Shown here piece after piece: positions 1,447 to 47,236 of a stretch of 64,000 nucleotides of DNA. The stretch spans positions 69,686 through 133,685 of the forward strand of contig JAVCCL010000043.1 in the NCBI GenBank assembly GCA_030765505.1, written 5' to 3'. The notes under the pieces are model-generated. The model saw only the letters and a list, made by a program, of their open reading frames with translations. It was not told where the DNA came from and made no database searches. A program made the position numbers and the translations under genes. Within the stretch, counting starts at the first letter, position 1; every line of letters begins with the position of its first letter. The stretch is from Candidatus Kaelpia imicola. Its GTDB lineage: Bacteria; Omnitrophota; Gorgyraeia; Kaelpiales; Kaelpiaceae.

Positions 1447-1486
1447 GAGCCCTGTTATCTTTTTAGGTAGCAGGGCTTTTTTTATT
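1447..1486 (+). terminator. Intrinsic terminator hairpin; likely the riboswitch expression platform
   Basis: gagccctg (1447-1454) pairs with cagggct (1471-1477), followed by a ttttttt run, about 35 nt before the btuB-like start. Confidence 0.6.
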
Positions 1487-1521
1487 TTAAACCAGTTTTT
1501 CAAATTAAAAGGAGTAGAGAG

Positions 1522-3522: not shown

Positions 3523-3557
3523 TATATAGAGCTTATCTTCTATGTTAAAATAATGCA

Positions 3558-20631: not shown

Positions 20632-21363
20632 ATTATAAATATTAAATTAGTCCTGGAGTATGACGGCGGTTGTTTCTCTGGTTGGCAGAGACAGAGAGAG
20701 AAGACTACCGTACAGGGTGAGATTGAATCGGGGCTATCTAAGATTCTGTCTCAGCCTGTGAATTTAATATCTTCGGGCAGGACAGATGCTGGAGTTCATG
20801 CAAAATATCAGGTGGCCAACTTTAAGACAGAGAAAAGAGTGCAGCCTGAAGATATTAAGAGAGCTTTAAACTCACTCTTACCTTCAGATATTAGGATTAA
20901 ATTTGCACAGAGAGTGGGTTTGGATTTTCATGCTCGTTATTCTGTTAAAAACAAAATTTACAGGTATAATATATTTACAGGAGAGTATATCTCTCCGTTT
21001 AAAGTTAGATACTTCTGGCATCTGCCTTTAGGTTTGGATTTTTATAAGATGAGTGAAGAGATAGGATATATTTTAGGTAAACATGATTTTATAAATTTTC
21101 AGGCTAAAGGAAGCAGTGTTAAAGATACTAAGAGAACAGTATCTAAGGCTTTTCTGAAAAAAGACGGCAGCTATTGCAGTATCTTTATAGAGGCAGATGG
21201 TTTTCTTTATAAGATGGTAAGGTTCATTGTTGGAACTCTTGTTGAGGTTGGTAGAGGTAGATTTGAGCCTGGGAGAGTTAAAGTTCTTCTTGGCGGTAAG
21301 AGATTAAAGAGAGGTCCTGTAGCTCCAGCAGAAGGGCTTTTTCTCTGGAAGGTGAAATATTGA
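20632..21363 (+). CDS. truA: tRNA pseudouridine(38-40) synthase TruA; apparent non-canonical start (ATT/ATA) immediately after the upstream TGA
   Basis: The TruA N-terminus IKLVLEYDGGCFSGWQRQ...SSGRTDAGVHA is encoded from ~20641 in the same frame. The ORF-track start at 20758 is an internal GTG. No ATG, GTG or TTG lies between the upstream stop (20626-28) and this homology. Confidence 0.8.
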   Translation: MINIKLVLEYDGGCFSGWQRQREKTTVQGEIESGLSKILSQPVNLISSGRTDAGVHAKYQVANFKTEKRVQPEDIKRALNSLLPSDIRIKFAQRVGLDFHARYSVKNKIYRYNIFTGEYISPFKVRYFWHLPLGLDFYKMSEEIGYILGKHDFINFQAKGSSVKDTKRTVSKAFLKKDGSYCSIFIEADGFLYKMVRFIVGTLVEVGRGRFEPGRVKVLLGGKRLKRGPVAPAEGLFLWKVKY

Positions 21364-22145
21364 AGAAGATAGGCGTAAGACAGCTGCAGGATTTTTTAAA
21401 GATTTTAGGAGTAGATTATTATAAAGATGGTCTCTATTACTATAAGCTTTTAGAATACCCCTTGATTTTAAAAGAGATAGACTTTGAAGAATCTGGAAAG
21501 ATTCTTGATATAGGTTGCGGTAAAAGCTTTTTGCCGCTCTACTTTCTTTACAGGGGGTTTGAAACTTGGGTGGTGGATAATGGCGAATTCTATGCTGACT
21601 TCGATAAATTCTATAGGCAGATTCTAGATTCAAGACGTTTTATGGATGATGAGAATATGAGTATTATCTGGGGTAATTTTCAGGAAATAGATTTTCCTAC
21701 AGGTTATTTTGATTTTATTACGGCTATTTCAACATTGGAGCATTTTAAGTTTAGTGGTGATATGCAGGCAGCAATGAAGATAAATGCCTTACTTAAAAAG
21801 GGTGGAAGATTTATTGTAACTCTACCTTTCTCTCAGGCCGGTACAAGAGAGAAGTTTTTTGACAATAATGGCCATACATATTTTCAGCGTGACTATGAAT
21901 TGGATTGCGTCTTTAAAAGAATAGTTGAGCCTTCTAAATTAAAATTAAAATATTTTTATATTATTGGTGAGAGGTTTCCTTCTCTGGGAAAGTTTTTTTT
22001 CTTTAAAATGCCTTTTGCAAAACGTAAAAATACCTGGGCACGTCTCTTCTCTAAGCTATTTTGGAAGGTTTATTACAAAGGGAAGGATAGGAAGCTGCCC
22101 CAGTTTAAATATCCCGGAGTGATAATCATGGTACTAGAGAAATGA
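21360..22145 (+). CDS. Class I SAM-dependent methyltransferase
   Basis: Motif I LDIGCGKS and FDFITAISTLEH. Its start overlaps truA (ATGA). Confidence 0.7.
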   Translation: MKKIGVRQLQDFLKILGVDYYKDGLYYYKLLEYPLILKEIDFEESGKILDIGCGKSFLPLYFLYRGFETWVVDNGEFYADFDKFYRQILDSRRFMDDENMSIIWGNFQEIDFPTGYFDFITAISTLEHFKFSGDMQAAMKINALLKKGGRFIVTLPFSQAGTREKFFDNNGHTYFQRDYELDCVFKRIVEPSKLKLKYFYIIGERFPSLGKFFFFKMPFAKRKNTWARLFSKLFWKVYYKGKDRKLPQFKYPGVIIMVLEK

Positions 22146-23080
22146 AGTTATCCAAGATTTCTGTTGTAATGCCGGTCTACGATGAAGAGGATAGCCTTCC
22201 CCGTATCTTTAATGAGCTGAAAGATGTCTTAACCGGAATACCCTATGATTATGAGATAGTGATTGTAGATGACGGCAGTAAGGACGGGAGCTGGGATTTA
22301 ATATCGAGTGTTTCCAGTTCGGATGAAAAGATAAAGGCTATCAGGCTTCTTAAGAACTATGGGCAGACGGCGGCAATTCAGGTTGGTTTTGAGAATGTTA
22401 GCGGTAATCTCATTGTAGTTATGGATAGCGATGGACAGAATGACCCTGCCGATATCCCTCTCTTAATTTCAAAACTTAATGAAGGTTATGATGTTGTAAG
22501 CGGATTGAGATTTAAAAGAAAAGACTCTCTGGTAAGGAGGTTCTTCTCTTATTCCGGTAATCTCTTGATTAGAAAAACGACAGGACTTAAGATTCATGAC
22601 GTAGGCTGCAGCTTGAAGGTATATAAGAAAGAGTGGGTTGATAATTTAAAACTTCTTGGCGAAATGCATAGAATATTCGTTGTCTATCTGGCTGAGATGG
22701 GAGCTAAAGTTGCTGAAGTTAAGGTCAACCATCGTGAGAGGATAGGGGGGCGCTCAAAGTATGGAATAGCAAGGGTTATGAAATTGATGATGGACCTGAT
22801 ACTCTATAAATTCTTTACAAGCTTTGCTTCAAGACCGATATATGTATTTGGCGGAACAGGTTTTATAAGTATATCTATGTCTCTATCTGTGTTTATCTTT
22901 GTTGTCTACAGGAAGATTGTCTTTCGGGGTCTCTGGTTAAGTCCGCTATTCTTTATAGCGGTGTCGTTATTTACCGTGGGAATTCTTTTTATCATGCTGG
23001 GTATACTGGCTGAAATTGTTATGCGGATCTATTATCAGACTAAGTATGGGTTTCCTTATAAAATCAAAGAGAAGATATAG
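22142..23080 (+). CDS. GT2 polyprenyl-phosphate glycosyltransferase (DPM1/ArnC/GtrB-like) with C-terminal TM helices
   Basis: VVMPVYDEEDSL, IVIVDDGSKDGS and VVMDSDGQND (DxD) motifs, with two C-terminal TM segments. Confidence 0.8.
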   Translation: MKLSKISVVMPVYDEEDSLPRIFNELKDVLTGIPYDYEIVIVDDGSKDGSWDLISSVSSSDEKIKAIRLLKNYGQTAAIQVGFENVSGNLIVVMDSDGQNDPADIPLLISKLNEGYDVVSGLRFKRKDSLVRRFFSYSGNLLIRKTTGLKIHDVGCSLKVYKKEWVDNLKLLGEMHRIFVVYLAEMGAKVAEVKVNHRERIGGRSKYGIARVMKLMMDLILYKFFTSFASRPIYVFGGTGFISISMSLSVFIFVVYRKIVFRGLWLSPLFFIAVSLFTVGILFIMLGILAEIVMRIYYQTKYGFPYKIKEKI

Positions 23081-23086
23081 CTAAAA

Positions 23087-24952
23087 ATGTGCGGTATTCT
23101 CGGTTCATTAACCGATAGCGTTATAGATAACAGAGAGAGATTTAAGGAGGCTCTTGGTCTTTTATACCATCGCGGCCCTGATGAGATTGGGTATTTTCTG
23201 AGTCAGAATATTAGCCTGGGTTGCCGCAGGCTTAAGATCATAGGGTTAGATAATGGTAATCAGCCTATAGTTAATGAAGATGGTACATTAAGGATAATAT
23301 TTAATGGGGAAATATATAATTACAGAGAGTTAAGATCAGATCTTAAATCCAAAGGTCATCTTTTCAAAACCGATACCGATACAGAGGTTATCCTCCATCT
23401 TTATGAAGAGGAAGGAGTTGGATGTTTAGAGCGTTTTGAAGGTATGTTTGCTTTTGCTATTTGGGATAGCCGGGATAGGAGCCTTTTTATTGCCAGAGAT
23501 AGGTTCGGTATTAAGCCGCTTTTCTATTCCCATAACAGAGATGGATTTATTTTCTCGTCTTCTATCAAACCTATCTTGAAGCTTCTAAATAGTAAGCCTG
23601 GTATATCTGATAAGGCCTTAAATCTCTACTTTTGGCTGGACTATGTGCCTTCACCCTACACCATATATAAGGGTATATCCTCTCTGCTGCCGGCCCATTA
23701 CCTTGTTTTTTCAAAAGATAGGGGTTTAGATATAAAAAAGTATTATAGCCTGGGGAAGTGCGATCTTAGAAATAGAAGCAGAGAGGATATTATTTTAGAT
23801 CTGAGAGAGCGTATCTCGAACTCAGTTAAGAAACATCTTGTTTGCGATGTTGAGCCGGGTCTTTTTTTAAGCGGAGGACTTGATTCAAGTATATTGGCTT
23901 ATCATATGAATGAGCACCTGGGTTCTTTTAAGACATTCAATATCGGTTTTAGGGAGAGTAGCTTTGATGAATCAAGGTATGCAAAGTTGATTGCAGATCG
24001 GTTTAGGCTGGAATACAACTTTAAATGTTTTTCCAGCGATTATCTTTTAGGATATTTAGAGAATATTGTTTCCAGGCTGGATCAGCCTTTTGCCGATCAT
24101 TCACTATTACCTACTTATCTTCTCTCCGATTTCAGTTCTAGAAAATTAAAGCTGGTTCTTTCTGGTGATGGAGGAGATGAGTTGTTTTGCGGGTATCAGA
24201 CATATATTGCTCATAGATTATTTCGTTTTTATAAGATTATGCCTTTAAAATTAAGAGAGAGTTTTTTAAGATTGGCTCTCTCTCTTGTCCCGGTTTCTGA
24301 TAGATATTTTAGTTTAAACTTTTGTCTGGACAGATTTTCGAGGTCTCAAAGTATAAATGATATTAAGAGGCATATCTCCTGGATGGAAAGTTTTGGTCAG
24401 GAAAGAAGAGAACTTTTAAATGATAGATATGAAGATGTTGAGGATGAGTATATAGATTTTATTCAGGATAAGTTTATATCAGACTCTAAGGGGTTAGAGA
24501 AGATTCAAAAGTTCGATATTTATAGCTATCTTAGTAATGACATTTTATATAAGACTGATTTTTCAAGCATGCAGAATTCATTAGAAGTCAGGGTTCCTTA
24601 TTTAGAGAAGAGTGTGGTTGAGCTGGCTTTATCATTGCCTGAGAATCTGAAATTAAGGAATCTCAGAGATACTAAACATATATTGCGATCTGCCTACAGA
24701 GGTAGTTTGCCCGCTGCGATTCTCGAGAGGAAAAAAGCAGGCTTCAGTTTGCCTGTAGCAGGAATGTTGAGGGGTCAGTTAAAGAGTATGCTTAATGATC
24801 TTATCGAAGATAACAGTAGTCTAAGATATTTAAATAGAGGTTATCTGAAAGATATCTTCTTGGAACATTTGCAATATAGGAAGAATAACCGTAAAATACT
24901 TTGGAATATTTTGATTTTCTCTATATGGTCCATAAAACATGAAGCAGAATAA
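23087..24952 (+). CDS. asnB: Asparagine synthetase (glutamine-hydrolysing) family amidotransferase, AsnB-like
   Basis: N-terminal MCGILG (Ntn nucleophile Cys2) and the PP-loop SGGLDSS. Confidence 0.85.
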   Translation: MCGILGSLTDSVIDNRERFKEALGLLYHRGPDEIGYFLSQNISLGCRRLKIIGLDNGNQPIVNEDGTLRIIFNGEIYNYRELRSDLKSKGHLFKTDTDTEVILHLYEEEGVGCLERFEGMFAFAIWDSRDRSLFIARDRFGIKPLFYSHNRDGFIFSSSIKPILKLLNSKPGISDKALNLYFWLDYVPSPYTIYKGISSLLPAHYLVFSKDRGLDIKKYYSLGKCDLRNRSREDIILDLRERISNSVKKHLVCDVEPGLFLSGGLDSSILAYHMNEHLGSFKTFNIGFRESSFDESRYAKLIADRFRLEYNFKCFSSDYLLGYLENIVSRLDQPFADHSLLPTYLLSDFSSRKLKLVLSGDGGDELFCGYQTYIAHRLFRFYKIMPLKLRESFLRLALSLVPVSDRYFSLNFCLDRFSRSQSINDIKRHISWMESFGQERRELLNDRYEDVEDEYIDFIQDKFISDSKGLEKIQKFDIYSYLSNDILYKTDFSSMQNSLEVRVPYLEKSVVELALSLPENLKLRNLRDTKHILRSAYRGSLPAAILERKKAGFSLPVAGMLRGQLKSMLNDLIEDNSSLRYLNRGYLKDIFLEHLQYRKNNRKILWNILIFSIWSIKHEAE

Positions 24953-26663
24953 ATGGTTTCTAATATTATTTTTTATTATCCTGATCTATTCTCTTGTAGC
25001 CGTTTATATTATTGCTTCTAATTCAAATTTTCCTACAATAGATGCTCCTAACCATGCCATATTCTGTGTTCAATTTTATGGTGATACAATAGATTTATTT
25101 CATAATTCTGAGCTCTCTATTGCCGGTAAGATATTTGAATTCAGAAATATTTTTTCTAAAGGCATAATCTATTGGCCTAAGCTGCTTAATTTAAGCTCGC
25201 TGCCTTTTATGTTTATCTTTGGGTTATCAGCTTGTAGTATAAAAATGGCCAACGTATTGTATTTAATAATTTTTGCGGTTTTTGGCTATCTGCTGGCTTT
25301 AAAACTTGGAGCTAATAATAGAGAGGCTCTTTTTGTTACGATTATTCTTCCGCTCTATCCTGTTATTTTAAGGGCTATACAGAGTTACGGTTTAGATCTG
25401 CCGCTTATGAGTATAGTTGTCCTGTTTTTCTTCTTGCTTTTAAAGACAGATGGTTTTAAGAAGACCCTTTATTCAATATTGGCAGGTTCTGTGTTTGGAA
25501 TTGGCTTACTGATCAAAGGTCAGGTTGTGATATTTGTTTTATTTCCTCTCTCTCTCTATCTGTTTATTTCATTATCAAAAGAGATTAAAGGTGACGGAAA
25601 CTACATTCCTCTTTTTAGGTTACTTGCCAATCTCTCTCTATTCTTGATCTTTGCTTTTCAAATTGGTGGTTTATGGTGGCAAGGGAAGTATAATGATCTA
25701 TTATCGGCTTTAAGAGAGCATACCATACCTGATTATAAACATTTTGAGAGTTATCCTTATGAAGCTTCAGGGTCTTTAAGTTACTACCTCTTTTATTTTA
25801 AATATCTTTATTTAGATGGTTTTGGACCTCTGCTTAGCTGTTTTTCGGTATTGTCGTTTTTTAGATATATTTTTAATAAATCTCTACCTAATAAAAAAAT
25901 AGCATTATCCTGGTTGTTTTTTCCGCTCCTAATACTGTCTTTTTTGTTTAAAGTCCATCAGCTTAGATATATTATCCCCCTTGTTCCGGTTATTGTCATT
26001 ATTACTACGATAGGCTCAAGGTTTAAAAGACTGCTTTGGACTATCTTTTTTAGGTCTCTACTTTTAATTATATTAGTTTTTCGGGTCTATCTGTTAGTGT
26101 TCTCTGGGAAAGATAAGCCTCTCTGCAGTAAACTGTTTGCCATTAGGTATAGCGATGGTATTTTAAAAGATTTTGAAATGAATAATTCTGATATAGCCGA
26201 TATTTTTTATGAAAATTTAGAAGATCATTTAGCCCCCGGTCGGTATAACTGCTTGATTATCCGTTCAGCCGGCATTGAAGACGGGCCTGTTGGTATACAG
26301 CTCTGGCTTGAGATGAAAGCATATAACAAGGGTTATAGAATTTTGACCCATGATTTATATGATCAATGGTATTCAATCTATGAATGGTGGAAGGGAGAAC
26401 CGGGTAAGTATATAATATTGTTTATTGAAGACGGAAGTCAAGATTTAGGTGGGGATAGATTGTTTGATAAGGATTGGATATTAAAAAGAGATGAAGAGCT
26501 GTTTCCCAGGATAGAAGAGTTTAAAAATCATCCTGTAACGGCTGAGCTTTTAGATGAATTTTTCCCGCTTTTAAAAGAGCGGGCTCAAAAAATGTTTGAT
26601 TTTGATATAGCCATATATCACTGCGAAGCCTATGAATACGAAAATGTTCCAACCTCTTATTGA
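24939..26663 (+). CDS. GT-C fold membrane glycosyltransferase (PMT_2/ArnT-like, GT39/83-type), paralog 1
   Basis: More than 10 TM helices. An acidic/His motif IDAPNHA follows TM1. This architecture is shared with five other ORFs in the window. Confidence 0.5.
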   Translation: MKQNKWFLILFFIILIYSLVAVYIIASNSNFPTIDAPNHAIFCVQFYGDTIDLFHNSELSIAGKIFEFRNIFSKGIIYWPKLLNLSSLPFMFIFGLSACSIKMANVLYLIIFAVFGYLLALKLGANNREALFVTIILPLYPVILRAIQSYGLDLPLMSIVVLFFFLLLKTDGFKKTLYSILAGSVFGIGLLIKGQVVIFVLFPLSLYLFISLSKEIKGDGNYIPLFRLLANLSLFLIFAFQIGGLWWQGKYNDLLSALREHTIPDYKHFESYPYEASGSLSYYLFYFKYLYLDGFGPLLSCFSVLSFFRYIFNKSLPNKKIALSWLFFPLLILSFLFKVHQLRYIIPLVPVIVIITTIGSRFKRLLWTIFFRSLLLIILVFRVYLLVFSGKDKPLCSKLFAIRYSDGILKDFEMNNSDIADIFYENLEDHLAPGRYNCLIIRSAGIEDGPVGIQLWLEMKAYNKGYRILTHDLYDQWYSIYEWWKGEPGKYIILFIEDGSQDLGGDRLFDKDWILKRDEELFPRIEEFKNHPVTAELLDEFFPLLKERAQKMFDFDIAIYHCEAYEYENVPTSY

Positions 26664-29565
26664 CGGCGCTAAATCGGATCTGTTGCTTTTAATGATTCAC
26701 ACCTGGTATCCCTGGATGCCCCCTCTAGGCATATCTTATATATCAAATTATATGGAGTCTAAGGGTTATAAAGCGCTGCTCTTTGATTTTAATGCCAAAC
26801 TATACAATAATACTTCCGGTGAGAAGAAGAGGTTCTGGGATATAAGCACTATAAGCAGCTTACCGCTGCAGGATATAGTAGCTCTTTTGATAAATAGTTT
26901 TTCCAAAGAGATTGATGAATTAATCGATATAGTTCTTAAACGTCCAGAACCTATTATAGGATTCTCTACTAATTATTTAAGTATCCACGTTGTGAATCAT
27001 ATTGCTAAAATTATCAAAAGTAGAAATAGTGATAAGTTACTGATTGCAGGGGGTCCAGGTTGTTTCTGGGATCATGATCGCAGTGTTGTCGAACCTGGAG
27101 CGATAGATATTTTTGTTTTAGGAGAGGGAGAGAGGCCGCTCTATAATATAGTGGAGAGTTTTTATAAAGGGTCTAGTCTGGAAAATATTCCAGGCACTAT
27201 ATTTATAAAAGATAAAAAAGAGATAGATAATAGGCCGGCTGATCCGATATTTGATTTAAACAGCATCCCCTACCCGGATTTTAAAAATCTAGATTTAGAT
27301 GACTATGGATTTGGTGAAAAACAGACCAGAACTCTGCCTCTATTGGCCAGTCGCGGCTGTATCTCCAAGTGCACTTTCTGCATAGATCACTTTATGTGTA
27401 CCCCTTTTAGGATGAGAGAGCCAAGAAATATAGTCGATGAGATAAAGTTTCATATAAAAGAAAATGGTGTAAAAAACTTCTCTTTTAACGACCTGCTCTG
27501 TAACGGAGATTTAAAGAGACTCAGAGAATTTGCTGAGCTTATCAAAGAAGAGTCTCTCAATATACAGTGGGGCAGTTATGCTGTTGCCAGAGGGGATATG
27601 GATTTAGAGCTATTGAAGAGTCTTAAAGATGCAGGCTGTGTATCTCTCTGTTATGGGATAGAGAGCGGGTCAGATAAAATCTTAAAGGTGATGAGCAAGA
27701 TTTATACTGCCTCTGATGCTGAGCGGGTCTTAAGGTTGACAAAAGAGGCAGGCATAAAGGCTACTTTTAACATAATTATAGGCTATCCCGGGGAGGGGAG
27801 AAGGGAGTTCAAGCAGACTCTCCGTTTCGTAAAGAGAAACAGAGCTTACACAGAGAGTATTATCAATGTCTCTACTCTCTTTATCAATCCTACGGCAGCA
27901 CTTGGTGTGGAGCCTGAAAAGTTTAATATTTATTTTCCAAGACACCCCCGGAGTTTTAAGTTTATTTCATTAAAAAAGGCTTTGATTCCTAAATATTATA
28001 GTCTTTTTGGTATAAGTTCAGCTGTCAAAGATACGAAAGGAGTGGATATTTCGGAATTTGTCGATAAAAACGGAAACACAAAACCAGTAAGACTAAAAAG
28101 GTTAGTAAAGACACTCTATTTCTTGCAAAGACTGGGATTGTTTAGAAACGAGCCGATTATAAATGTTTATGCCACTAGGAACAGAAAAGTAAAGAAGGCT
28201 ATTGAATATATAGGGAGCAGGCAGAGCCTTACCTCTGGAGATCTTAGCGTTAAATGCAACAGGGAAGGTTTTGTAAGGATATTTTTAAAACATAAGTGTA
28301 TCACTGCAGGCCCGGGACTGAATATTGCTTTTTGGATTAAAGATAATTGGTATGATACATCTAGATATATCTGGGAGATTAAAAAGATAGGTTTAAATAG
28401 GATTGAGATTTTGATCAATATGGATGATATTGCTATAGAACACAAGTGGCTCTTAGAGCTTAAACCTGAAGGATTATATTGGCATATCAATGTCTGTTTT
28501 AGGGCCAAAAACTATACTGTTAACGAGACTAAGATAGGACTTCAGCTCTCAGAGTTTTATAAACATTGGTATTCTAAGTCTTATCAGGGAGAGTTTCCTG
28601 TTTTAGATGATAAATGGAAGAGCTTAGATCTGGAAGATGTCCAGAGTATTTGGGCTATGACAGAAGGAGGCTCTCCTTTAGGGGTTGAGATGAGTAAGAT
28701 TAAAAGCTCTATACCTTTGAGTTTGAGGATGGAGAGTTCTTATGCAAAGTACGGTTTTAGATTCTTAGCCTTCAGGAATAAAATTATTAGGCCTTACAAC
28801 AATAATAAGTTGAATATTAAACTGTTTTTTGGTTTTCGGGAAATACCCAAATCTTATTTAAAGATAAAAGAAGAGAAGAGAGCGTTAGAGAAAAAAGAGT
28901 TTCAGATTGTTGGAGCCGGGGATGAACTTAACGAAAGAAGAGAGCCTCTCTATGTAAAGAGATTTCGTTTTTTAGATTTAAGTATAAATAAAGGTATAAA
29001 GTTGTATTATAAGCAACGTGAGATAACGTCTGGGTGCGGAGCTATTATAACATGCCACCATAATGGCAGGATATTTGACAGTAGAGATGCTATCTGGAGC
29101 CTTATAGGTGGTAAAAATTATGATATCTTCGATCTCTATTGGGAGAATATATGTTTTCAAATAGAATGGGGGATAAGAGTTAAGAGAAACAATATTTTAT
29201 GGAGCTTTAGAGTTAATTCCTTAGAGAAGATAGAGTTAAAAGAATTGAAGTTTGGTCTTTTTTTAAATAAAAAATATGATTCTTGGTCTTTGGGTCCGTT
29301 CAGGGGGGGGTTGCCGGATAGCGTTAAAGATAGGTGGGATTATCTTCCTCTTACAAAAAGTAATGACAATAAAATATTATTAAGCTCTAGTCAAAATAAT
29401 CTTCCCGCTCTTTCATTCTCTAAATCCAAACTGGGATTTTTTCAAATAGAGGTACCCGATTTAAATATTGCAGAAGGTAAGATTATCTATGCTGCTTTAA
29501 ATAATTTATGTCTTAAGAGCGGAAAACCGTTAAATTTTCACTACAAGATTGGTCTGGAAGAATAA
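26632..29565 (+). CDS. B12-binding domain / radical SAM protein (class B) fused to a ~500-aa C-terminal region of unknown function
   Basis: The N-terminal Rossmann-like B12-binding region (LIAGGPGCF...GEGERPL) is followed by the radical SAM CxxxCxxC motif SRGCISKCTFC. The C-terminal half shows no recognisable motifs. Confidence 0.8.
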   Translation: MNTKMFQPLIDGAKSDLLLLMIHTWYPWMPPLGISYISNYMESKGYKALLFDFNAKLYNNTSGEKKRFWDISTISSLPLQDIVALLINSFSKEIDELIDIVLKRPEPIIGFSTNYLSIHVVNHIAKIIKSRNSDKLLIAGGPGCFWDHDRSVVEPGAIDIFVLGEGERPLYNIVESFYKGSSLENIPGTIFIKDKKEIDNRPADPIFDLNSIPYPDFKNLDLDDYGFGEKQTRTLPLLASRGCISKCTFCIDHFMCTPFRMREPRNIVDEIKFHIKENGVKNFSFNDLLCNGDLKRLREFAELIKEESLNIQWGSYAVARGDMDLELLKSLKDAGCVSLCYGIESGSDKILKVMSKIYTASDAERVLRLTKEAGIKATFNIIIGYPGEGRREFKQTLRFVKRNRAYTESIINVSTLFINPTAALGVEPEKFNIYFPRHPRSFKFISLKKALIPKYYSLFGISSAVKDTKGVDISEFVDKNGNTKPVRLKRLVKTLYFLQRLGLFRNEPIINVYATRNRKVKKAIEYIGSRQSLTSGDLSVKCNREGFVRIFLKHKCITAGPGLNIAFWIKDNWYDTSRYIWEIKKIGLNRIEILINMDDIAIEHKWLLELKPEGLYWHINVCFRAKNYTVNETKIGLQLSEFYKHWYSKSYQGEFPVLDDKWKSLDLEDVQSIWAMTEGGSPLGVEMSKIKSSIPLSLRMESSYAKYGFRFLAFRNKIIRPYNNNKLNIKLFFGFREIPKSYLKIKEEKRALEKKEFQIVGAGDELNERREPLYVKRFRFLDLSINKGIKLYYKQREITSGCGAIITCHHNGRIFDSRDAIWSLIGGKNYDIFDLYWENICFQIEWGIRVKRNNILWSFRVNSLEKIELKELKFGLFLNKKYDSWSLGPFRGGLPDSVKDRWDYLPLTKSNDNKILLSSSQNNLPALSFSKSKLGFFQIEVPDLNIAEGKIIYAALNNLCLKSGKPLNFHYKIGLEE

Positions 29566-29690: not shown

Positions 29691-31640
29691 TTGAAGAGAG
29701 ATGTTCAAAAAGAATTAAGTAGTTTAAGGCGGGAGTTAGACTGCCTTAAGAAGAAAGAGAAATCTTATAAAAAAAACGGGTTAGAGTTACGGGAGAGCGA
29801 AGAGAGGTTTAGGAAGCTATTTGACGCTACCATGGAGGCTATAGTCTTACATGAGAAGGGTAGGATTTTAGCGGTAAACAAATTCTTTCTCAAAATGTTC
29901 GGTTATAGAAAAAAGTCTGAAATAATAGGAAAGAGCGTTCTGGATTTAGCCACTCCTAAATATAGAAACATTGTTAAAAGACACGTGCTGTCAGGTTATC
30001 AGAAAGTATATATTGCCGAGGGTAAAAAGTGTGATGGGACCATTGTAAAAGCTGTGCTTTCAAGTAGGCCTGTTAAGCTGAGAGGCAGGAATGTTAGGGT
30101 GACTGTTCTGCGTGATATTACTTCTCAGGATAAAGAACAGAAGGAATTAAAGCTCTTTAAAACAGTTGCTGATGTTTCGAAGTACGGTTCAGCTATTATG
30201 GATATGAATAAGAGGTTGGTGTATATCAACGGTGCTTTTGCTAAAATGCACGGCTACAGCAAAAAAGAGCTTATAGGTAGAAAGATACTCCTTCTGCATT
30301 CTAATCGGAATTTAAAAAAAATAGATAAATCTATTGAAGATGTTATTAAAAAAGGAGGTTTTATTGATTGCGAGCAGGTTCACTTAAGAAAAGACGGTAC
30401 AGAGTTTGTTGCTTCTATGAGCGCAGCTTTAATAGAAGGTGATAGCACAGATTCTTCCTATATGACTGCTGTAATTATAGATATAAGCGATAGAAAAAAA
30501 GCCGAGGTTTTACTTAAAGCAGAGCGTGCTCAACTTCTCTCTATCTTTGATAGCATAGATGAGGTGATCTATGTTACAGATCCTCATAATTATGAGATTC
30601 TGTATATGAATAAGTTTTTTAAAAAGATTTTAGGCAAGAATTCTATAGGAGGTTTTTGTTATCGTGAATTTCAGAATTTTGATAGACCCTGCTACTTCTG
30701 CACAAATGAAATAATCTTAAAAAGGGCTGGTAGACCTTATAAGTGGGAATATCATAACCCGATTCTGGATAAAGATTATTATATTGTAGATAGAATTATT
30801 AAATGGCCTGATGGTCGGGATGTAAGGTTTGAAATAGCGATAGATATTACAGAGCGTAAAAAAGCTGAAGCTCTTATTATGAGGTATAACAGAGAACTTG
30901 AAGGAGAGGTAAAGAGAAGAACAGATGAATTACTGAAAGCAGAGAGGAAGCTTGAAGAGTCTAAACGTCTCTCTGATATCGGTATGTTGGCTGCAACAGT
31001 AGCGCATGAACTCAATAACCCTTTGGGAGTTATAAAGACAGCTGTATTTAATATCAGGAAAGAGAGAGCTGAGATTGACGATGATTTGGAGGGCCATCTC
31101 TTTAACATAGAGAAGAAGATATCCCAGAGCAGCAGGATTATTAAAAATTTGCTTGGTTATGCTAAAATAAAGAAGCCTATTTATGAAAAGGTAGATATTA
31201 TAACTATCGTTGATGAATGTATCGACAGTTGTAGCAAAAAATATAGCGATTATGAAGTAGTTATCGATAAAAGGTATAAGATAGATAGAGATAAAGTTAT
31301 AAAGGCAGATATTATACAGATAATCGAGCTGTTTACAAATATCCTTGAGAATGCCTTCCAATCTTTTAAAGGTAAAAAAGGGAAGATAATAATAATTGTA
31401 AATCGTAGTAAAGATAAGAGTAGTATCGATTTTAAGATTAGGGATAGTGGTTCGGGTGTGCCTGAGGATGACTTAGATAATGTCTTTGAACCATTTTTTA
31501 CAAAAAAACCAAGAGGTCTAGGCCTAGGACTTACTGTTTCGAAGCAGATAGTCCATCTTCATAGAGGCAGCATATATTTTAAGAGTAAATTGGGAGAAGG
31601 AACAGAGGTGAATATAAGTTTGCCTTGTACAATAGGATAG
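29691..31640 (+). CDS. Multi-PAS sensor histidine kinase (orphan; no response regulator adjacent)
   Basis: Repeated PAS segments, the HisKA H-box AHELNNPLGV, and an HATPase_c domain with G-boxes (RDSGSGVPED, GLGLGL). Confidence 0.85.
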   Translation: MKRDVQKELSSLRRELDCLKKKEKSYKKNGLELRESEERFRKLFDATMEAIVLHEKGRILAVNKFFLKMFGYRKKSEIIGKSVLDLATPKYRNIVKRHVLSGYQKVYIAEGKKCDGTIVKAVLSSRPVKLRGRNVRVTVLRDITSQDKEQKELKLFKTVADVSKYGSAIMDMNKRLVYINGAFAKMHGYSKKELIGRKILLLHSNRNLKKIDKSIEDVIKKGGFIDCEQVHLRKDGTEFVASMSAALIEGDSTDSSYMTAVIIDISDRKKAEVLLKAERAQLLSIFDSIDEVIYVTDPHNYEILYMNKFFKKILGKNSIGGFCYREFQNFDRPCYFCTNEIILKRAGRPYKWEYHNPILDKDYYIVDRIIKWPDGRDVRFEIAIDITERKKAEALIMRYNRELEGEVKRRTDELLKAERKLEESKRLSDIGMLAATVAHELNNPLGVIKTAVFNIRKERAEIDDDLEGHLFNIEKKISQSSRIIKNLLGYAKIKKPIYEKVDIITIVDECIDSCSKKYSDYEVVIDKRYKIDRDKVIKADIIQIIELFTNILENAFQSFKGKKGKIIIIVNRSKDKSSIDFKIRDSGSGVPEDDLDNVFEPFFTKKPRGLGLGLTVSKQIVHLHRGSIYFKSKLGEGTEVNISLPCTIG

Positions 31641-31757: not shown

Positions 31758-31831
31758 GCGCCTGTGGCTCAATTGGATAGAGCGGCTGGCTACGGACCAG
31801 TAGATTGGGGGTTCGAGTCCCTCCAGGCGTG
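31758..31831 (+). tRNA. tRNA-Arg (anticodon ACG)
   Basis: Hand-folded cloverleaf. Acceptor stem GCGCCTG/CAGGCGT with a G1-U72 wobble. D-arm GCTC...GAGC. Anticodon loop CTACGGA gives ACG. T-arm GGGGGTTCGAGTCCCTC. CCA is not encoded. Confidence 0.8.
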
Positions 31832-31846
31832 TATGTTTTTTACACA

Positions 31847-32302
31847 ATGAACGACAATTTTTACATGCAGGAGGCTTTAAAAGAGGCTTTTAAAGCACTG
31901 GATAAAGACGAGGTGCCTGTTGGGGCGGTTATAGTATATCAGAATAAGATAGTAGCCCGAGCATACAATCAGGTAAGAATGTTAAAGGATCCTACTGCTC
32001 ATGCGGAGATTCTTGCTATAACACAGGCAGCAGATTATTTAAAGTACGAGAGATTGAATGGATGTAATATCTATGTTACAATCGAGCCGTGTATAATGTG
32101 TGCTGGTGCGTTAATATTGGCGCGGGTAGATAAATTGATATACGGAGCTTCAGATAATAGACAGGGAGCTTTTGGTTCTCTGCTGGATGTTACAAAATAC
32201 AAAGATACGCATCATAAGATAAAAGTAAAGAATGGTGTTTTAAAAGAAGATTGTGCTTTTTTAGTTCAGGATTTTTTTAAAGAGAAAAGAGTTACAGCTT
32301 AA
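31847..32302 (+). CDS. tadA: tRNA-specific adenosine deaminase TadA
   Basis: HAEILAI and PCIMCAGAL zinc-binding CDA motifs. ATG at 31847, 16 nt after the tRNA-Arg gene. The ORF-track start at 31805 overlaps the tRNA. Confidence 0.9.
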   Translation: MNDNFYMQEALKEAFKALDKDEVPVGAVIVYQNKIVARAYNQVRMLKDPTAHAEILAITQAADYLKYERLNGCNIYVTIEPCIMCAGALILARVDKLIYGASDNRQGAFGSLLDVTKYKDTHHKIKVKNGVLKEDCAFLVQDFFKEKRVTA

Positions 32303-37721: not shown

Positions 37722-39305
37722 ATGTCCAGGAAAACAGTTTTTTTGATACTTCTTCTTATAGTCGTATTTCATCTCTTAAACAATTTTATTATTCTCACAA
37801 TAGATGATACTCCTCCAGTAGGACACTATGGGCTCTATTTTTCACATAGCCTGTATCTCTTTGAACAGTTTAAAAATCTTTCGCCTGGATTTATAACTGA
37901 GCTGTTTAACGTTAATAGTATATATCCCCCTCTGCTCTATTTAACGCCCATACCTCTCTATTATATTTTTAGCATAGATTATGATGTTGCTTCTTTTTCA
38001 GTCGGACTGCTCTATCTTTCTGTATTTATATTCTCTCTATATTTTCTAGCAACCTACCTCTTTAAACCTTCTGTAGGGATTGTAGCTGCTCTTATCGGTT
38101 CTCTCTTTGCGGCAGTCTTTGGCTATGCCAGGCTATTTCTAATGGCATTTCCAATGGTTGCCATTTTGACATTGAATATCTATCTTATGTTTAAGACCGA
38201 AGTGTTTAAGAAGAGGCTATATGTAGTACTCTTTGCTTCTGTTTTAGCTTTAGGGATGCTGATGAAGAAATTTTACTTTATCTATATCTCTTTTTTTACA
38301 TTAATCTATCTGATTGAAAACAGAAAATTGATATCTAAAGAGCGGTTCAAGGTTTTTTTAAATATTTTTATTGCAGCTGGTATTGTTATATCTATTTCCG
38401 GGTATTGGTATCTTCGCAACATTGAACCCATTTTGTTCCAGCTTAAAAGTGACCAGCCTACAATATTTTATAATGAAGGCTATAGTTTTAATTTTTTAAT
38501 TTATTTAAAGTATTTGATTAGATATCAATTAGGTTGGTTCTTATTCTCTCTTTTTTTAATATCTTTTATCTATCTTGTTATCAAAAAGAGGTCCGCGCTT
38601 TTTCTATCAGCTTGGGTTATATGGCCCTACCTTATCTCTTCTCTTTTTATTGTTGAGAAGAGTTCCCGCTATACAATGGCCATGCTGCCTGCGATTGCTA
38701 TCATAATTGCTAATGGAATAATGGGATTTTCAGATAACCTGAAGCTTAAAAGAAGGCCTGCTTTAAGGTGCTCTCTTATGTTTTTAATTTTAGCTGTTCC
38801 GGTGTTTAATTTTTTTAAGACCTCTTATGGCGGGGGAGTAGAAGTGTTCAATTATAGGGATGAGACAGATAGGTTCTTTTATACCGGATTATTAAGGTCT
38901 AAGAAGATTGGTTGGGATATTGAAGATTTAGAAAAAACCTTAATTCAAGATGGTAAAAATAAAATCATGATAGATGGGTTCGGCTACTGGTATCTTTTAA
39001 ATGACTACTTGAATAACTTTATTGAAAATAACAATCTCTCTATCAGCTTTATTCATTTGGAGTTTGACGAAAGAGATAAAGATTATAGAAAGCTTATAGA
39101 GGAAGGGGATTTTATTATTTTAAGATCCGATGACGGGTCTTCTATTCCCAATATCAGCCTACCTTTTGAAAATGAAAACTTAGAGAAGATCCGTTCTCTT
39201 CTGGTTATATTTAATGAATATAAAGAGAAGTTTGAATTAATCAATAGGGTTACCATAGAAGGTAGGTTTACGGAGAGAACGCTGTTGATTTATAAGAGAA
39301 TATAG
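37722..39305 (+). CDS. GT-C-like polytopic membrane protein (PMT_2/ArnT-like), paralog 2, with C-terminal soluble domain
   Basis: N-terminal TM helix followed by TIDDTPPVGHY, then about 11 further TM helices and a ~150-aa C-terminal domain. Confidence 0.45.
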   Translation: MSRKTVFLILLLIVVFHLLNNFIILTIDDTPPVGHYGLYFSHSLYLFEQFKNLSPGFITELFNVNSIYPPLLYLTPIPLYYIFSIDYDVASFSVGLLYLSVFIFSLYFLATYLFKPSVGIVAALIGSLFAAVFGYARLFLMAFPMVAILTLNIYLMFKTEVFKKRLYVVLFASVLALGMLMKKFYFIYISFFTLIYLIENRKLISKERFKVFLNIFIAAGIVISISGYWYLRNIEPILFQLKSDQPTIFYNEGYSFNFLIYLKYLIRYQLGWFLFSLFLISFIYLVIKKRSALFLSAWVIWPYLISSLFIVEKSSRYTMAMLPAIAIIIANGIMGFSDNLKLKRRPALRCSLMFLILAVPVFNFFKTSYGGGVEVFNYRDETDRFFYTGLLRSKKIGWDIEDLEKTLIQDGKNKIMIDGFGYWYLLNDYLNNFIENNNLSISFIHLEFDERDKDYRKLIEEGDFIILRSDDGSSIPNISLPFENENLEKIRSLLVIFNEYKEKFELINRVTIEGRFTERTLLIYKRI

Positions 39306-41240
39306 ATGAAAACAAAAGAGAGAGTTCTGCTCTATTTTCTATTATTAATCTTAGTTTTAACAAAGCTGCAGTATTTATTTAAAGCGGGATTGTTATTTGA
39401 TACCTGGGAGATGTGCAATCTATTTATTGCAAATACAATAGTAAAACATCGGATATTTTTGCCCTCATTTTTTCATCTCTCTGTACCTTATGCAGGCGGC
39501 GGAGACTATCTGTATAGTCTTCTCTCTGCTCCTTTTGTCTATCTGTTTGGCAGCAACATTTTTTCAATTCGGATATTAACTATCTTTCTTAACATGGTTG
39601 AACTTAGCCTTCTTTTTTACATTGTAAATAGGTATTGGAGCTGGAGGGAGGCTCTTGGAGCTTCTTTATTATTCATATTTTGTTCTAAGTATATTTTTAT
39701 CTATTCTATTGTCGGTATGGGACGGCATTTTCATTTAGGTCTATTCTTTTTATTATCGCTGTTTTTCTACCTTAGATTTAAAGAGAAAAAGGGGTATCTC
39801 TCTGCTGTTCTATTTGGTCTCAGCATGGGTATTGGTAATTATTTCTATCCGGCTTTTGCAGTATTTATCTCTATTTTTATACTTTTTTTTCTGCTGAGCA
39901 TTGACTGGAAGAGAGTATCAGATTATCTTAAGATCTTCATTGTGCTTTCCTCTACGATACTATCAGGTCTCTTTTACAAAGTTGTTTTTTTAGATTTTAA
40001 CATTGCCTACACTTTTAAAAGTACTTTTATGCTCTCTACCCATTCCCCTAAGGCAATATTCCCGATAGATAATATTTTTATTATTGTAAAAAGGTTTATC
40101 TTATTCCTGTTTTTTCTGGTTCCGGATTTTTTATCTTTTAATCTTTTTCACACTGGAGAATATTTTAACCTCTTTAGAGATATTGAGAGTCTATCTTTAG
40201 TAAAAGCTTTTCAAGAAATATTTAACCTCTATCAATCTAAGAGTAACTCTTTGGATATCTTTTATGCCGATCTATACCGGGTAATCTTTATTCTATTTTT
40301 TGCAATTATTATTTCTTATATTCTTAAAAGAGCAAAAAACTTTAAGCAGTTTGTGATTGGAGAGAGAGGAAGAGATAAGAAAGCATTGAAAAACTCTATT
40401 ACAGCATTGCTCTCTGTAACAATATTGGTCTATTTTTTCTTATATATCTTAAATGGCCGCTCTATCACTACTTATAAATATTATCTACCGTTATTTATAC
40501 CGATTATTCTTGCTCTAACTATAGTTACTGCATGGAAAAAAAGTTTTTTCTTGCCGTTATTAATTATTTTGCTGATTCCCGGTTTTAACTTTCAGCTTCA
40601 AGCGTTAAAAACCTCTGATTCCAAAGGCAACCCTCTTATGCCGCTCTATTATGGCGACAAATCGACTTTAGAGTTTCTGGGCGATAGCAATAACTCAGAA
40701 CAAAAGAAACTTATAGAGCTAAATATAAATACAGCCCATACTCTGGGCTATATATTGGCTGATAGGAGTAAAGATTGCTCTGCATTGCGTCTGCTGGCTG
40801 GAGATATTTCTTTTTCAGATAAGGCTAGGCGTTTTTTCTGGGAAGGATGGTTTTCCAAGATGTTCTTAAATGAGAGCATAGATATTGATTATGTTAAAAA
40901 TTATCTCGCAGATTTAAAGAGAGAAGAGAGGTTTTTCGCTTTTTCCGGGATAGGCGAAGCTCTCATCCAGAATTCTATATATTGTCCGGATATATCTGAA
41001 TATTTTAAAAGTGCAGAGAGAGATATTTTAAAGATAACAACTATAGAGGAGAGAGTCTATTTTTATCAGGGTTTAGGCAGGGGCTTAGCTCGCTTATACG
41101 GTAGCGATGTCTATTCTGCAAAAGGGCCTTATATAGCTGATAAGAGGTTGTTCTATTCTTACCTTCAGATGGTAGATAGGGATAATATAACTGATTTTAT
41201 AAATGGGTTTTTACTTAAAGAGTTATGGCAGCCTTTATAG
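39306..41240 (+). CDS. GT-C-like polytopic membrane protein, paralog 3, with ~200-aa C-terminal soluble domain
   Basis: Many TM helices. Start is adjacent to the previous stop. C-terminal domain is of unknown function. Confidence 0.4.
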   Translation: MKTKERVLLYFLLLILVLTKLQYLFKAGLLFDTWEMCNLFIANTIVKHRIFLPSFFHLSVPYAGGGDYLYSLLSAPFVYLFGSNIFSIRILTIFLNMVELSLLFYIVNRYWSWREALGASLLFIFCSKYIFIYSIVGMGRHFHLGLFFLLSLFFYLRFKEKKGYLSAVLFGLSMGIGNYFYPAFAVFISIFILFFLLSIDWKRVSDYLKIFIVLSSTILSGLFYKVVFLDFNIAYTFKSTFMLSTHSPKAIFPIDNIFIIVKRFILFLFFLVPDFLSFNLFHTGEYFNLFRDIESLSLVKAFQEIFNLYQSKSNSLDIFYADLYRVIFILFFAIIISYILKRAKNFKQFVIGERGRDKKALKNSITALLSVTILVYFFLYILNGRSITTYKYYLPLFIPIILALTIVTAWKKSFFLPLLIILLIPGFNFQLQALKTSDSKGNPLMPLYYGDKSTLEFLGDSNNSEQKKLIELNINTAHTLGYILADRSKDCSALRLLAGDISFSDKARRFFWEGWFSKMFLNESIDIDYVKNYLADLKREERFFAFSGIGEALIQNSIYCPDISEYFKSAERDILKITTIEERVYFYQGLGRGLARLYGSDVYSAKGPYIADKRLFYSYLQMVDRDNITDFINGFLLKELWQPL

Positions 41241-41257: not shown

Positions 41258-41956
41258 CTATGATTTTCGAGCTCTAAAGATTGAGCTTACTCCAAAAGGT
41301 ATATTGAATCTCTTAGAAAAGGCTAAGTCCCATCTTATAAAAAAGAAGGAGAGATTGTTTAAAAAATCAGGTAGATTTATACAGTCATCCGTCTCTTTTT
41401 TTATATTTAATATTTTTTGAAATTTTCTGAATAGATATACAGCTAAAAATATTGTCCAGCCAAAAAGATCAACTTCTGTATTACTAAAGCCGGATTTGGA
41501 TAGTTTATCCAAGAGTTCTCTCTTTCTGTAGCGGCGGTAATGCTTGTTAAGCTTATCTTGCTGTCCCCAGAGGGTAGGCGACATGGGTAGAGAGCCGAAT
41601 AGAAGTCCGGATTTCTCTAAAACTCTGGATATCTCTTCTAAGGCTCTCTTGTCATCTTTTATATGCTCTAATACTTCAAAGGAGACTACAATTTTAAAGC
41701 TCTCTTTTTTAAACGGTAGATTGGTCAAATTCGCGATTACTCGATTCTCTATAGTGTTGTTATCCATTGTTTTTAAATCCAGGGCTATTATTTTTTTATA
41801 GTTTAAGGCTATATTTGAAAAATAACCGTTGCCGCAGCCTGCATCAAGTATCAATGTCTCTTCGGGCATCTTTAGTTTTTTGAGGGTTTTTAGTGCGGTC
41901 TCATACTTTATCTTTATCCACCAGTAGTTGTGGGTAAGCTTAAAATAGTTCAGCAT
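41258..41956 (-). CDS. Class I SAM-dependent methyltransferase (type 11-like)
   Basis: Motif I LDAGCGNGY and VVSFEVLEH. Last gene of the minus-strand operon. Confidence 0.7.
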   Translation of the reverse strand: MLNYFKLTHNYWWIKIKYETALKTLKKLKMPEETLILDAGCGNGYFSNIALNYKKIIALDLKTMDNNTIENRVIANLTNLPFKKESFKIVVSFEVLEHIKDDKRALEEISRVLEKSGLLFGSLPMSPTLWGQQDKLNKHYRRYRKRELLDKLSKSGFSNTEVDLFGWTIFLAVYLFRKFQKILNIKKETDDCINLPDFLNNLSFFFIRWDLAFSKRFNIPFGVSSIFRARKS

Positions 41957-45737: not shown

Positions 45738-45738
45738 T

Positions 45739-47121: not shown

Positions 47122-47171
47122 TGATAGCCTTGTTGATTTTAAGTTATAAAGTTATCTAATGTGTATTGACT

Positions 47172-47180
47172 ATTATAGCA
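47172..47180 (-). promoter_or_regulatory. Extended -10 promoter element (TGcTATAAT) for the minus-strand rSAM/GT operon
   Basis: The reverse complement of 47172-47180 reads TGCTATAAT, 51 nt upstream of the rSAM start codon at 47121. No good -35 hexamer. Confidence 0.4.
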
Positions 47181-47236
47181 TCTCATTCTGTTTTGGACTA
47201 TAAAGCATAAAGTTTAGATGTTTTAGCATTCTATTA

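Follow-up and report, generated by a model that had tools for sequence, protein, structure and literature searches.

Operon structure and continuity of the gene

The window, the whole 64,000-nucleotide stretch of Candidatus Kaelpia imicola DNA analyzed here, contains a conserved plus-strand operon whose last gene (26632–29565; ORF, Pfam, and homologs) encodes a 977-residue protein, a predicted B12-binding radical SAM (rSAM) enzyme with two predicted C-terminal β-supersandwich modules. The genes preceding it encode a class-I SAM methyltransferase (21360–22145), an ArnC/PgfS-like GT2 polyprenyl-phosphate sugar transferase with two C-terminal transmembrane helices (22142–23080; full-length match of 208.5 bits, below the equivalog cutoff of 529), an AsnB-type glutamine amidotransferase identified by Pfam and NCBIfam (23087–24952), and a PMT_2-like GT-C membrane glycosyltransferase with approximately nine hydrophobic segments (24939–26663), all on the + strand. 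These four genes are conserved across seven orthologous Omnitrophota loci to an extent that varies by gene: the methyltransferase gene in L005 and L007, the GT2 and AsnB genes in L002, L003, L005, and L007, and the GT-C gene, immediately upstream of the rSAM gene, in L002–L008. The 5′ end of the rSAM gene overlaps the GT-C gene by 32 nt, and a GT87-type GT-C gene lies directly downstream of the gene for the homolog P0001. In pairing an ArnC/PgfS-like GT2 with a GT-C membrane glycosyltransferase the operon resembles the ArnC/ArnT and GtrB/GtrC (GacI/GacL) systems; however, its AsnB-type amidotransferase, class-I methyltransferase, and module-bearing B12-rSAM protein have no counterpart there. 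No Wzm/Wzt genes were found near the operon, either in the window or in the orthologous loci. The downstream neighbor, a PAS/HisKA/HATPase sensor kinase gene (29691–31640, + strand) conserved in L002, L004, and L007, is probably a separate transcription unit, judging from the 125-nt gap that precedes it. Also in the window, a cobalamin riboswitch precedes a BtuB/F/C/D-like uptake operon.

The rSAM open reading frame begins with ATG and lies exactly where the first-pass annotation had placed it. That annotation had raised the question of whether a frameshift might make the frame two genes; it is a single gene, and its homologs are continuous over both junctions. P0001 is 50% identical across 719 residues without interruption, P0006 (980 residues) likewise has two modules, and the products of genome loci L002 and L003, at 71% identity, cover residues 1–977 and 1–976. 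Fusion of an rSAM domain to the module also occurs in P0001, P0006, P0080, P0062, P0085, and P0123, and roughly 40 species-representative genomes encode it. The unusual length of the protein is the sole hint of an artefact, whether of two genes merged by a sequencing frameshift or of a decaying pseudogene tail; with an unbroken frame, the identical fusion in six proteins and about 40 genomes, the full-length alignments to L002 and L003, and the continuity of P0001 and P0006, such an artefact is refuted, and we give it a negligible probability. An exact-sequence look-up of the protein returned no matching record.

The radical SAM half

A cobalamin-binding, Rossmann-like domain is probably present at the N terminus (residues 29–173; 26716–27150), where the Pfam B12-binding model PF02310 matches weakly (24 bits; cutoff 32.1) and where it exceeds that cutoff in the 44% identical ortholog P0006 (36.9 bits); NCBIfam class-B models span residues ∼30–430. 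Use of cobalamin by the enzyme is suggested indirectly by the riboswitch and uptake operon in the window. The rSAM core (residues 240–400; 27349–27831) matches PF04055 with 72.8 bits (E = 4.7e-20; cutoff 29.5) and contains the [4Fe-4S] cluster motif CISKCTFC (CxxxCxxC; residues 243–250; 27358–27381), of which Cys243, Cys247, and Cys250 are invariant in an alignment of the rSAM subfamily (A3). The protein is thus a member of the radical SAM superfamily, and the earlier description of a core with this motif, probably of the B12 type, holds. Within the linker and post-core region (residues 401–530; 27832–28221), delimited in the same alignment, a basic segment, NTKPVRLKRLVKTLYFLQRLGLF (residues ∼482–504), is conserved, with Asn482, Arg487, Arg490, Leu491, and Leu501 invariant; it might form an active-site cap or an amphipathic membrane-association helix. 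Hydropathy analysis found no transmembrane segments in the 977-residue protein, which is best read as soluble and cytoplasmic.

No curated NCBIfam cutoff for a named class-B equivalog or subfamily is reached. The best match is PhpK (129.5 bits; cutoff 600), followed by the rSAM_ocin_1 RiPP C-methyltransferases (115.9; 281.85), HpnJ (114.4; 577.6), BchE (112.7; 481.35), ApyD (110.3; 750), and the MgmA type (95.1; 360). Since RiPP C-methyltransferases, a P-methyltransferase, HpnJ, and BchE score much alike and well short of their cutoffs, the rSAM half singles out no one chemistry. Its nearest solved relative is MgmA (PDB 9ccb; E = 4.7e-14). The CxxxCxxC core and the probable B12-binding domain correspond to those of known class-B enzymes (PhpK, GenK/Fom3-type C-methyltransferases, HpnJ, BchE, and MgmA); in contrast to these, the 977-residue protein has ∼450 additional C-terminal residues, which make up the two supersandwich modules. 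The two rSAM proteins encoded on the minus strand of the window are, as first listed, 482 and 460 residues long (481 and 459 in the sequences scanned). The appended domains described in a 2026 review of B12-rSAM structures, namely the PDZ domain of DUF512 proteins, the C-terminal domains of TokK and TsrM, and the extra domains of OxsB, are all of other kinds (PMC12931638). We found no published description of the module or of its fusion to rSAM proteins in the literature.

The tandem C-terminal modules and their family

Residues 481–977 match no Pfam or NCBIfam family at E ≤ 1, in agreement with the first-pass annotation, which had seen no recognizable motif in this tail; a SPASM domain, DUF4070, or second rSAM domain, sought in the same region and at the same threshold, was not found. 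The tail had been taken for one domain of ∼500 residues. It consists instead of two tandem copies of a ∼210-residue module, an internal duplication missed earlier: module 1 (residues 531–735; 28222–28836), a charged linker that falls between the module envelopes (residues 736–777; 28837–28962), and a diverged module 2 (residues 778–977; 28963–29562). The two modules are 25% identical, residues ∼548–667 aligning with ∼789–907 (BLASTP E = 9e-8), and the duplication is ancient. A self-BLAST of the full protein gave the identity match alone, and the repeat emerged on direct comparison of the two halves.

Searched against a word index, the whole tail recovered a single homolog and a 50-sequence module profile gave no matches; the resulting picture of an orphan tail was abandoned when an exhaustive HMMER profile search exposed the limited sensitivity of the word index and recovered 428 or more representatives of clusters at 50% identity (E ≤ 1e-3). 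A module HMM of 211 positions, made from 164 instances, fits both modules of the 977-residue protein (E = 2.5e-42 for module 1 and 2.4e-40 for module 2). The module is not confined to this protein: it is fused to other glycan-handling proteins and is also encoded as stand-alone genes, an occurrence that the first-pass annotation had proposed to look for. The family is absent from Pfam and NCBIfam, and the best match of its profile among PDB sequences, at E = 1.1, is not significant.

The fold, previously given as unknown, was approached by modeling. An AlphaFold2 model of module 1 built from the 50-sequence module alignment (pLDDT 93.3, pTM 0.89) has a galactose-mutarotase (GalM)-like β-supersandwich fold; a single-sequence model of residues 471–977 (pLDDT 30) was discarded. 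Foldseek comparison of the module 1 model with the PDB gave 40 matches at E ≤ 1e-3; GalM-like folds dominate those listed, with a probability of 1.00, E values from 1.5e-5 to 1e-3, and TMq of 0.5–0.67. Each of the top matches is a GalM-like supersandwich domain from a carbohydrate-active protein, and they include the GH36-like galactosaminidase 9ayu, GH94 cellobiose phosphorylases, a cyclic glucan synthase, aldose-1-epimerase-like proteins, GH65, GH97, and GH38 enzymes, heparinase III, and MdoD. Matches of the same fold with non-sugar roles are the YidC P1 domain, a PBCV-1 capsid protein, and an NDH subunit. Module 2 would share the fold of module 1 by homology. This fold serves as a non-catalytic carbohydrate-binding-type domain in many glycoside hydrolases. 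Compared with the GalM-like domains of the same fold (the N-domains of GH36, GH94, GH65, and GH97, and those of GH38, heparinase III, aldose 1-epimerases, and YidC P1), however, the module is merely ∼7%–13% identical in sequence, has no profile link to Pfam or the PDB, and is joined to rSAM, ABC, and GT-C proteins rather than to glycoside hydrolases.

Module proteins carry one to nine copies and come from Omnitrophota in every case where the source names the organism. Among the best 151 of the at least 428 representatives, 79 (52%) have a TagH/Wzt-type nucleotide binding domain (NBD), 14 a SPASM-rSAM, 13 a B12-rSAM, and seven a GT-C domain. The best-scoring models for the module-fused NBDs are teichoic-acid and galactan exporter ATPases, and JGI names the NBD-module proteins [quoted passage not shown] An ABC-2 permease gene lies directly 5′ of the NBD-module gene in L031, L023, and L038, with a WecA/MraY-family GT4 gene also upstream in L031; rSAM-module genes adjoin NBD-module genes in L031, L035, and L041, and in large clusters most enzymes bear the module. 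For the GT-C fusions the hydropathy count ranges from 7 to 12 segments, and their modules may also be periplasmic. Relatives from Wallbacteria and Cloacimonadota have a different tail of ∼300 residues, and a by-eye reading of it as GT-A-like was dropped for lack of Pfam support.

Eight positions of the family are near-invariant across 314 full-length module instances (T 0.90, W 0.86, W 0.88, Y 0.88, W 0.83, F 0.89, P 0.91, and R 0.79), and the conserved residues of module 1 are Thr557, Trp580, Trp605, Tyr642, Trp645, Phe654, and Arg709. Among polar positions with a consensus of at least 50% there is no histidine, and the acidic ones are one aspartate (56%) and one glutamate (62%). The polar consensus is partly lost in the copies of the 977-residue protein, where Asn174 is replaced by serine or valine and Gln72 by histidine or isoleucine, and Arg182 is a lysine in module 2. 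Modules on different proteins of one locus are only 21%–30% identical and group according to host protein and position rather than locus, so we see no locus-level co-specificity, and nothing suggests that they recognize a common epitope.

Proposed role of the modules

Half of the module family has the layout of Wzm/Wzt, with a TagH/Wzt-type NBD, C-terminal β-rich modules, and an adjacent ABC-2 permease gene. The C-terminal carbohydrate binding domain of Wzt recognizes its polysaccharide and provides a precedent, in functional terms, for placing a domain that reads glycans on a cytoplasmic protein that handles them (PMC9445017). Unlike Wzt, the 977-residue protein is an rSAM enzyme and not a transporter, and members of the module family carry 2–9 tandem copies where Wzt has one. 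The modules of the 977-residue protein, P0002, and P0018 match neither Wzt_C nor any other Pfam family, and the top 50 Foldseek matches of module 1 include no Wzt chain; the likeness to Wzt is functional only.

From fold class and context, we lean with modest confidence toward a soluble glycan-tailoring rSAM enzyme that is tethered by its two binding modules to a glycan or lipid-linked sugar substrate. By analogy with the polysaccharide-export pumps of Omnitrophota that bear the same module, the probable target to which the enzyme docks and which it modifies is a sugar polymer of the cell surface or a lipid-linked sugar, and its reaction is probably B12-dependent C-methylation, since this is the commonest class-B rSAM reaction. 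In a pathway of the ArnC/ArnT or GtrB/GtrC type, the GT2 would put a sugar on undecaprenyl phosphate, the AsnB-type amidotransferase and class-I methyltransferase would add further decorations, and the GT-C would pass the product to an extracytoplasmic acceptor. Like the C-terminal carbohydrate binding domain of a Wzt-type O-antigen exporter ATPase, the modules would bind the glycan or lipid-linked sugar, keeping the enzyme attached to this substrate on the cytoplasmic side of the membrane, and the rSAM core would then carry out a radical tailoring step on the bound sugar or polymer.

Of the two roles first suggested for the tail, substrate recognition is the most likely; a second catalytic domain, for instance one that acts on the sugar like an epimerase or mutarotase, either ahead of the radical step or following it, appears very unlikely, since the modules have almost no consensus His, Glu, or Asp and occur in up to nine tandem repeats typical of binding modules. 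The Foldseek matches do include the aldose-1-epimerase-like structures 3k25, 3q1n, 3dcd, and 3nre, but these chains are ∼290–300 residues long against ∼210 for the module, there is no Aldose_epim Pfam match, and attachment of 2–9 repeats to transporter ATPases is unlike enzymes. With no Pfam match, no consensus histidine, and one weakly conserved glutamate, the module does not belong with the aldose 1-epimerases. The modules could also be protein-protein docking or oligomerization domains that assemble rSAM enzymes, GT-C, and exporter ATPase into a membrane-associated complex without binding substrate. GalM-like domains often mediate oligomerization in glycoside hydrolases, and the spread of the module over most enzymes of the large clusters, its evolution by host protein and position without locus-level co-specificity, and the partial loss of polar consensus residues in the copies studied here would all be consistent with docking. 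We nevertheless regard this as rather unlikely: the near-invariant aromatic and polar positions of the family are those expected of a ligand site, the 2–9 tandem copies on exporter ATPases look like multivalent polymer binding, and there is no obvious docking partner in the window, where the operon encodes a single module-bearing protein.

A substrate other than a glycan, either a RiPP-like peptide or a membrane lipid that the modules would bind, is in our judgment improbable. RiPP C-methyltransferases, at 115.9 bits (140.2 bits in P0006), HpnJ, and ladderane-lipid rSAM enzymes are among the best NCBIfam matches, but all lie two- to five-fold under the curated cutoffs. The SPASM-rSAM partner domains are typical of peptide maturases and the YidC P1 domain shares the fold, as would suit a peptide or lipid ligand, and Omnitrophota carry lipid-modifying rSAM genes (https://doi.org/10.1101/2023.10.20.563219). 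Against this, no precursor-peptide-like context was observed, the conserved neighbors are GT2, GT-C, and AsnB genes, and in sister architectures the module recurs on TagH/Wzt exporters that are accompanied by ABC-2 permeases and a WecA-like GT4.

Beyond the tethered glycan-tailoring enzyme favored above, the supersandwich modules might be a common address system in Omnitrophota, bringing rSAM enzymes of both the B12 and the SPASM type, GT-Cs, and a Wzm/Wzt-like exporter onto one lipid-linked surface polysaccharide, with radical chemistry performed directly on the polymer and coupled to export. This proposal is speculative, and we consider it possible rather than probable; to our knowledge, no rSAM tailoring at the polysaccharide level has been described.

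Class-B rSAM enzymes form a large and mostly uncharacterized group, and the catalytic domain alone is a poor guide to what they act on. In this case, an appended domain of carbohydrate-binding-type fold, borne also by polysaccharide-exporter ATPases and GT-Cs, points to a glycan or lipid-linked sugar as the substrate, a testable hypothesis that extends to a whole set of Omnitrophota rSAM enzymes. The module family is sizeable, with no fewer than 428 clusters at 50% identity, and fit for curation. The bacteria of the uncultured phylum Omnitrophota are very small and perhaps dependent on hosts, and next to nothing is known of their cell envelope. If polymer tailoring is true, radical SAM chemistry would extend to export-coupled modification of polysaccharides, for example by C-methylation of unactivated sugar carbons.

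Catalytic half and integrity of the fusion

The radical SAM (rSAM) fusion gene (26632-29565, plus strand) is present as the first-pass annotation described it; it encodes 977 aa from an ATG start and shares its first 32 nt with the 3' end of the upstream gene. Pfam places a Radical_SAM domain at residues 240-400 (72.8 bits), with the cluster motif, CISKCTFC, at residues 243-250. Its B12-binding match at residues 29-173 is sub-threshold, scoring 24 bits where the cutoff is 32.1. The class-B NCBIfam models PhpK, RiPP C-methyltransferase, HpnJ, BchE, ApyD, and MgmA-type align over residues ~30-430, none reaching its curated cutoff and all falling 2-5 fold under; among solved structures, MgmA (9ccb, E 4.7e-14), the MCR glutamine methyltransferase, is nearest in sequence. 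No transmembrane (TM) segment was found in the protein. Between the rSAM core and the first of two C-terminal modules lies a conserved basic segment of amphipathic appearance, NTKPVRLKRLVKTLYFLQRLGLF (residues 482-504, window 28075-28143), and a similar basic/hydrophobic leader of ~45 aa occurs at the N-termini of stand-alone module proteins (P0102, P0108, P0134, and P0146). Neither the segment nor these leaders reach the hydropathy threshold for a TM helix; the segment may act as a membrane-surface anchor.

Homologues running across the junctions rule out a frameshift joining two genes, an artefact the first-pass annotation had allowed for. P0001, a 772-aa homologue from a public sequencing-run assembly (50% identity over 719 aa), spans the rSAM-to-tail junction, and both junctions are crossed by the ortholog P0006 (980 aa) and by the proteins of orthologous loci L002 and L003 (71% identity, residues 1-977 and 1-976). 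About 40 relatives covering residues ~1-970 turned up when species-representative genomes were scanned.

Relatives of the rSAM half from Wallbacteria, Cloacimonadota, and an unclassified bacterium (L032:2953-5181, L033:3093-5321, L036:9902-12214, and L037:4608-6890; 743-771 aa as stop-to-stop ORFs) share a conserved C-terminal extension of ~300 aa that is unlike the module and matches neither it nor Pfam. Because these tails differ, the catalytic subfamily appears to have gained different C-terminal domains in different lineages. A GT-A-like identity suggested by eye for the ~300-aa extension received no confirmation from Pfam.

Duplicated tail, predicted fold and module family

Residues 481-977 belong to no recognised sequence family, as proposed earlier, with Pfam and NCBIfam empty even at E ≤ 1. 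Rather than the single ~500-aa extension first described, however, the tail is an internal duplication, in which residues ~548-667 match ~789-907 (BLASTP E 9e-8, 25% identity). The three copies known at that stage were made into a profile, and exhaustive scoring of 1.84 billion cluster representatives with it retrieved 428 proteins at E ≤ 1e-3, of which 234 reached E ≤ 1e-10; a single protein had up to eight matched stretches. The refined HMM (211 positions, 164 instances) places module 1 at residues 531-735 (E 2.5e-42) and module 2 at 778-977 (E 2.4e-40), separated by a charged linker of ~40 aa; no other ORF in the window bears a module.

In AF2, a single-sequence model of the complete tail gave a pLDDT of 30; module 1 modelled with a 50-sequence module alignment reached pLDDT 93.3 and pTM 0.89, with ~18 β strands. 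Foldseek returned 40 PDB matches to this model at E ≤ 1e-3, and among those listed galactose-mutarotase-like supersandwich domains dominate. The best of the named matches is the GH36-like galactosaminidase 9ayu (E 1.5e-5, TMq 0.67), and others include GH94 cellobiose phosphorylase N-domains, cyclic β-glucan synthase, and aldose-1-epimerase-like proteins, together with GH65, GH97, and GH38 domains, heparinase III, MdoD, and the YidC P1 domain. The model thus overturns the description of the tail as an unknown fold, predicting a known supersandwich. The sequence family itself has no name, though its fold is known: identity to these matches reaches only ~7-13%, and against PDB sequences the module profile has no significant match (best E = 1.1). 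Precomputed Pfam annotation of 138 relatives contains the ABC domain alone, and module-only fragments are labelled 'hypothetical protein' in databases.

Among the best 151 of the 428 representatives, with partner domains of confirmed identity, 79 carry an ABC ATPase domain followed by 2-8 modules, 13 have the B12-rSAM architecture of the window gene with 1-2 modules, 14 contain a SPASM-rSAM (some joined with B12-rSAM or ABC domains), 7 a PMT-type GT-C, and 43 modules only, many being contig-end fragments. The module also occurs as a stand-alone gene, a point flagged for checking, in ~9 of the 151 (~250-300 aa, with the ~45-aa leader). Tandem arrays of 8-9 modules, several degenerate, occur in P0025 (2244 aa, ABC class) and P0084 (1881 aa, without a recognised partner domain).

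The top-scoring matches of the ABC domains are TagH and galactan Wzt/RfbE exporter ATPases; the ABC-module proteins are named 'ABC-type polysaccharide/polyol phosphate transport system ATPase subunit' by JGI and assigned to Candidatus Omnitrophota by NCBI. In related loci L031, L023, and L038 an ABC-2 permease gene (PF01061) lies immediately 5' of the ATPase-module gene, and permease followed by ATPase is the classical wzm-wzt order. A WecA/MraY-family GT4 lies upstream in L031, and the ATPase-module gene adjoins rSAM-module genes in L031, L035, and L041. Giant multi-rSAM fusions also occur in related Omnitrophota loci: L031:8456-12652 (B12-rSAM, module, SPASM-rSAM, module; 1398 aa), P0106 (SPASM domain, two B12-rSAM units, module; 1451 aa), P0023, P0114, and P0151.

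Genomic setting

The fusion is the last gene of a tightly packed set comprising a class-I methyltransferase (21360-22145), a GT2 (22142-23080), an AsnB-type amidotransferase (23087-24952), and a PMT_2-like GT-C (24939-26663); beyond a gap lies the gene for a PAS histidine kinase. This order is retained across seven orthologous Omnitrophota loci (L002-L008), no exporter genes were seen beside the orthologous operons, and on the contig of P0001 a GT87-type GT-C lies directly 3' of the fusion. The GT2 matches ArnC and PgfS over its full length (208.5 bits; residues 2-303 on profile positions 4-303 of 316) and has two C-terminal TM helices. ArnC and PgfS are undecaprenyl-phosphate sugar transferases. 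The GT2 and GT-C are therefore read, from what is established for such systems, as a putative ArnC/ArnT- or GtrB/GtrC-type lipid-carrier glycosylation couple.

At 1165-6133 (plus strand), a cobalamin riboswitch (1165-1389, 64 bits) precedes genes for a TonB-dependent receptor, a Peripla_BP_2 (BtuF-like) binding protein, a FecCD permease, and an ABC ATPase. Together they make up a complete BtuB/F/C/D-like B12 uptake operon, which fits the B12 dependence of the three rSAM genes in the window. A second, paralogous cassette occupies 41258-48451 (minus) and 37722-41240 (plus). Its minus-strand part encodes a GT-C (47237-48451), B12-rSAM proteins of 460 aa (45739-47121) and 482 aa (44289-45737), lengths agreeing with those first reported, a PMT-type GT-C (42653-44302), an ArnC-like GT2 (41940-42665), and a class-I methyltransferase (41258-41956); two further GT-C genes lie within the plus-strand part. 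The cassette mirrors the methyltransferase/GT2/GT-C/rSAM operon but lacks modules and AsnB. Six PMT/PMT_2-like GT-C paralogues (starts 24939, 37722, 39306, 42653, 47237, and 60981) are unusually many for a 64-kb window and suggest that the envelope is extensively glycosylated. Elsewhere, the TTG start listed mechanically for a 165-aa ORF (31805-32302), nucleoside-deaminase-like by eye, falls inside a tRNA (31758-31831); the ORF probably begins at a downstream Met (MNDNFYMQEAL...).

Proposed role of the modules

The most economical reading is that the fusion is a glycan-tailoring rSAM enzyme. [quoted passage not shown] The remaining operon enzymes would amidate, methylate, lipid-load, and lastly transfer the sugar.

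Substrate recognition is the best-supported candidate role for the modules. In Wzm/Wzt systems the ATPase ends in a carbohydrate-binding domain that reads the modified O-antigen terminus (PMC9445017). The module is neither a sequence nor a fold member of the Wzt domain, which serves as a functional precedent; the fusion would be a class-B rSAM enzyme with appended binding modules following a similar logic. The second catalytic domain raised in the first-pass annotation, here an epimerase-like activity, is unlikely because the module has no conserved His and forms long tandem arrays. Modules of different proteins within one locus are 21-30% identical, against 35-85% for positional orthologues across loci; the copies are ancient paralogues without locus-level co-specificity. 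A common single epitope for all modules is therefore not supported, which leaves room for the modules serving as a protein scaffold; the GalM-like fold is also known in non-sugar settings among the Foldseek matches. In the window modules the positions of the structural core (T, G, W, W, Y, W, G, and P) are intact, but some polar consensus positions are gone.

Part of the value of substrate recognition as the preferred reading is that it gives a whole set of orphan rSAM enzymes a concrete substrate hypothesis; part of the value of the finding also lies in the module family itself, an uncurated domain family of the Omnitrophota.
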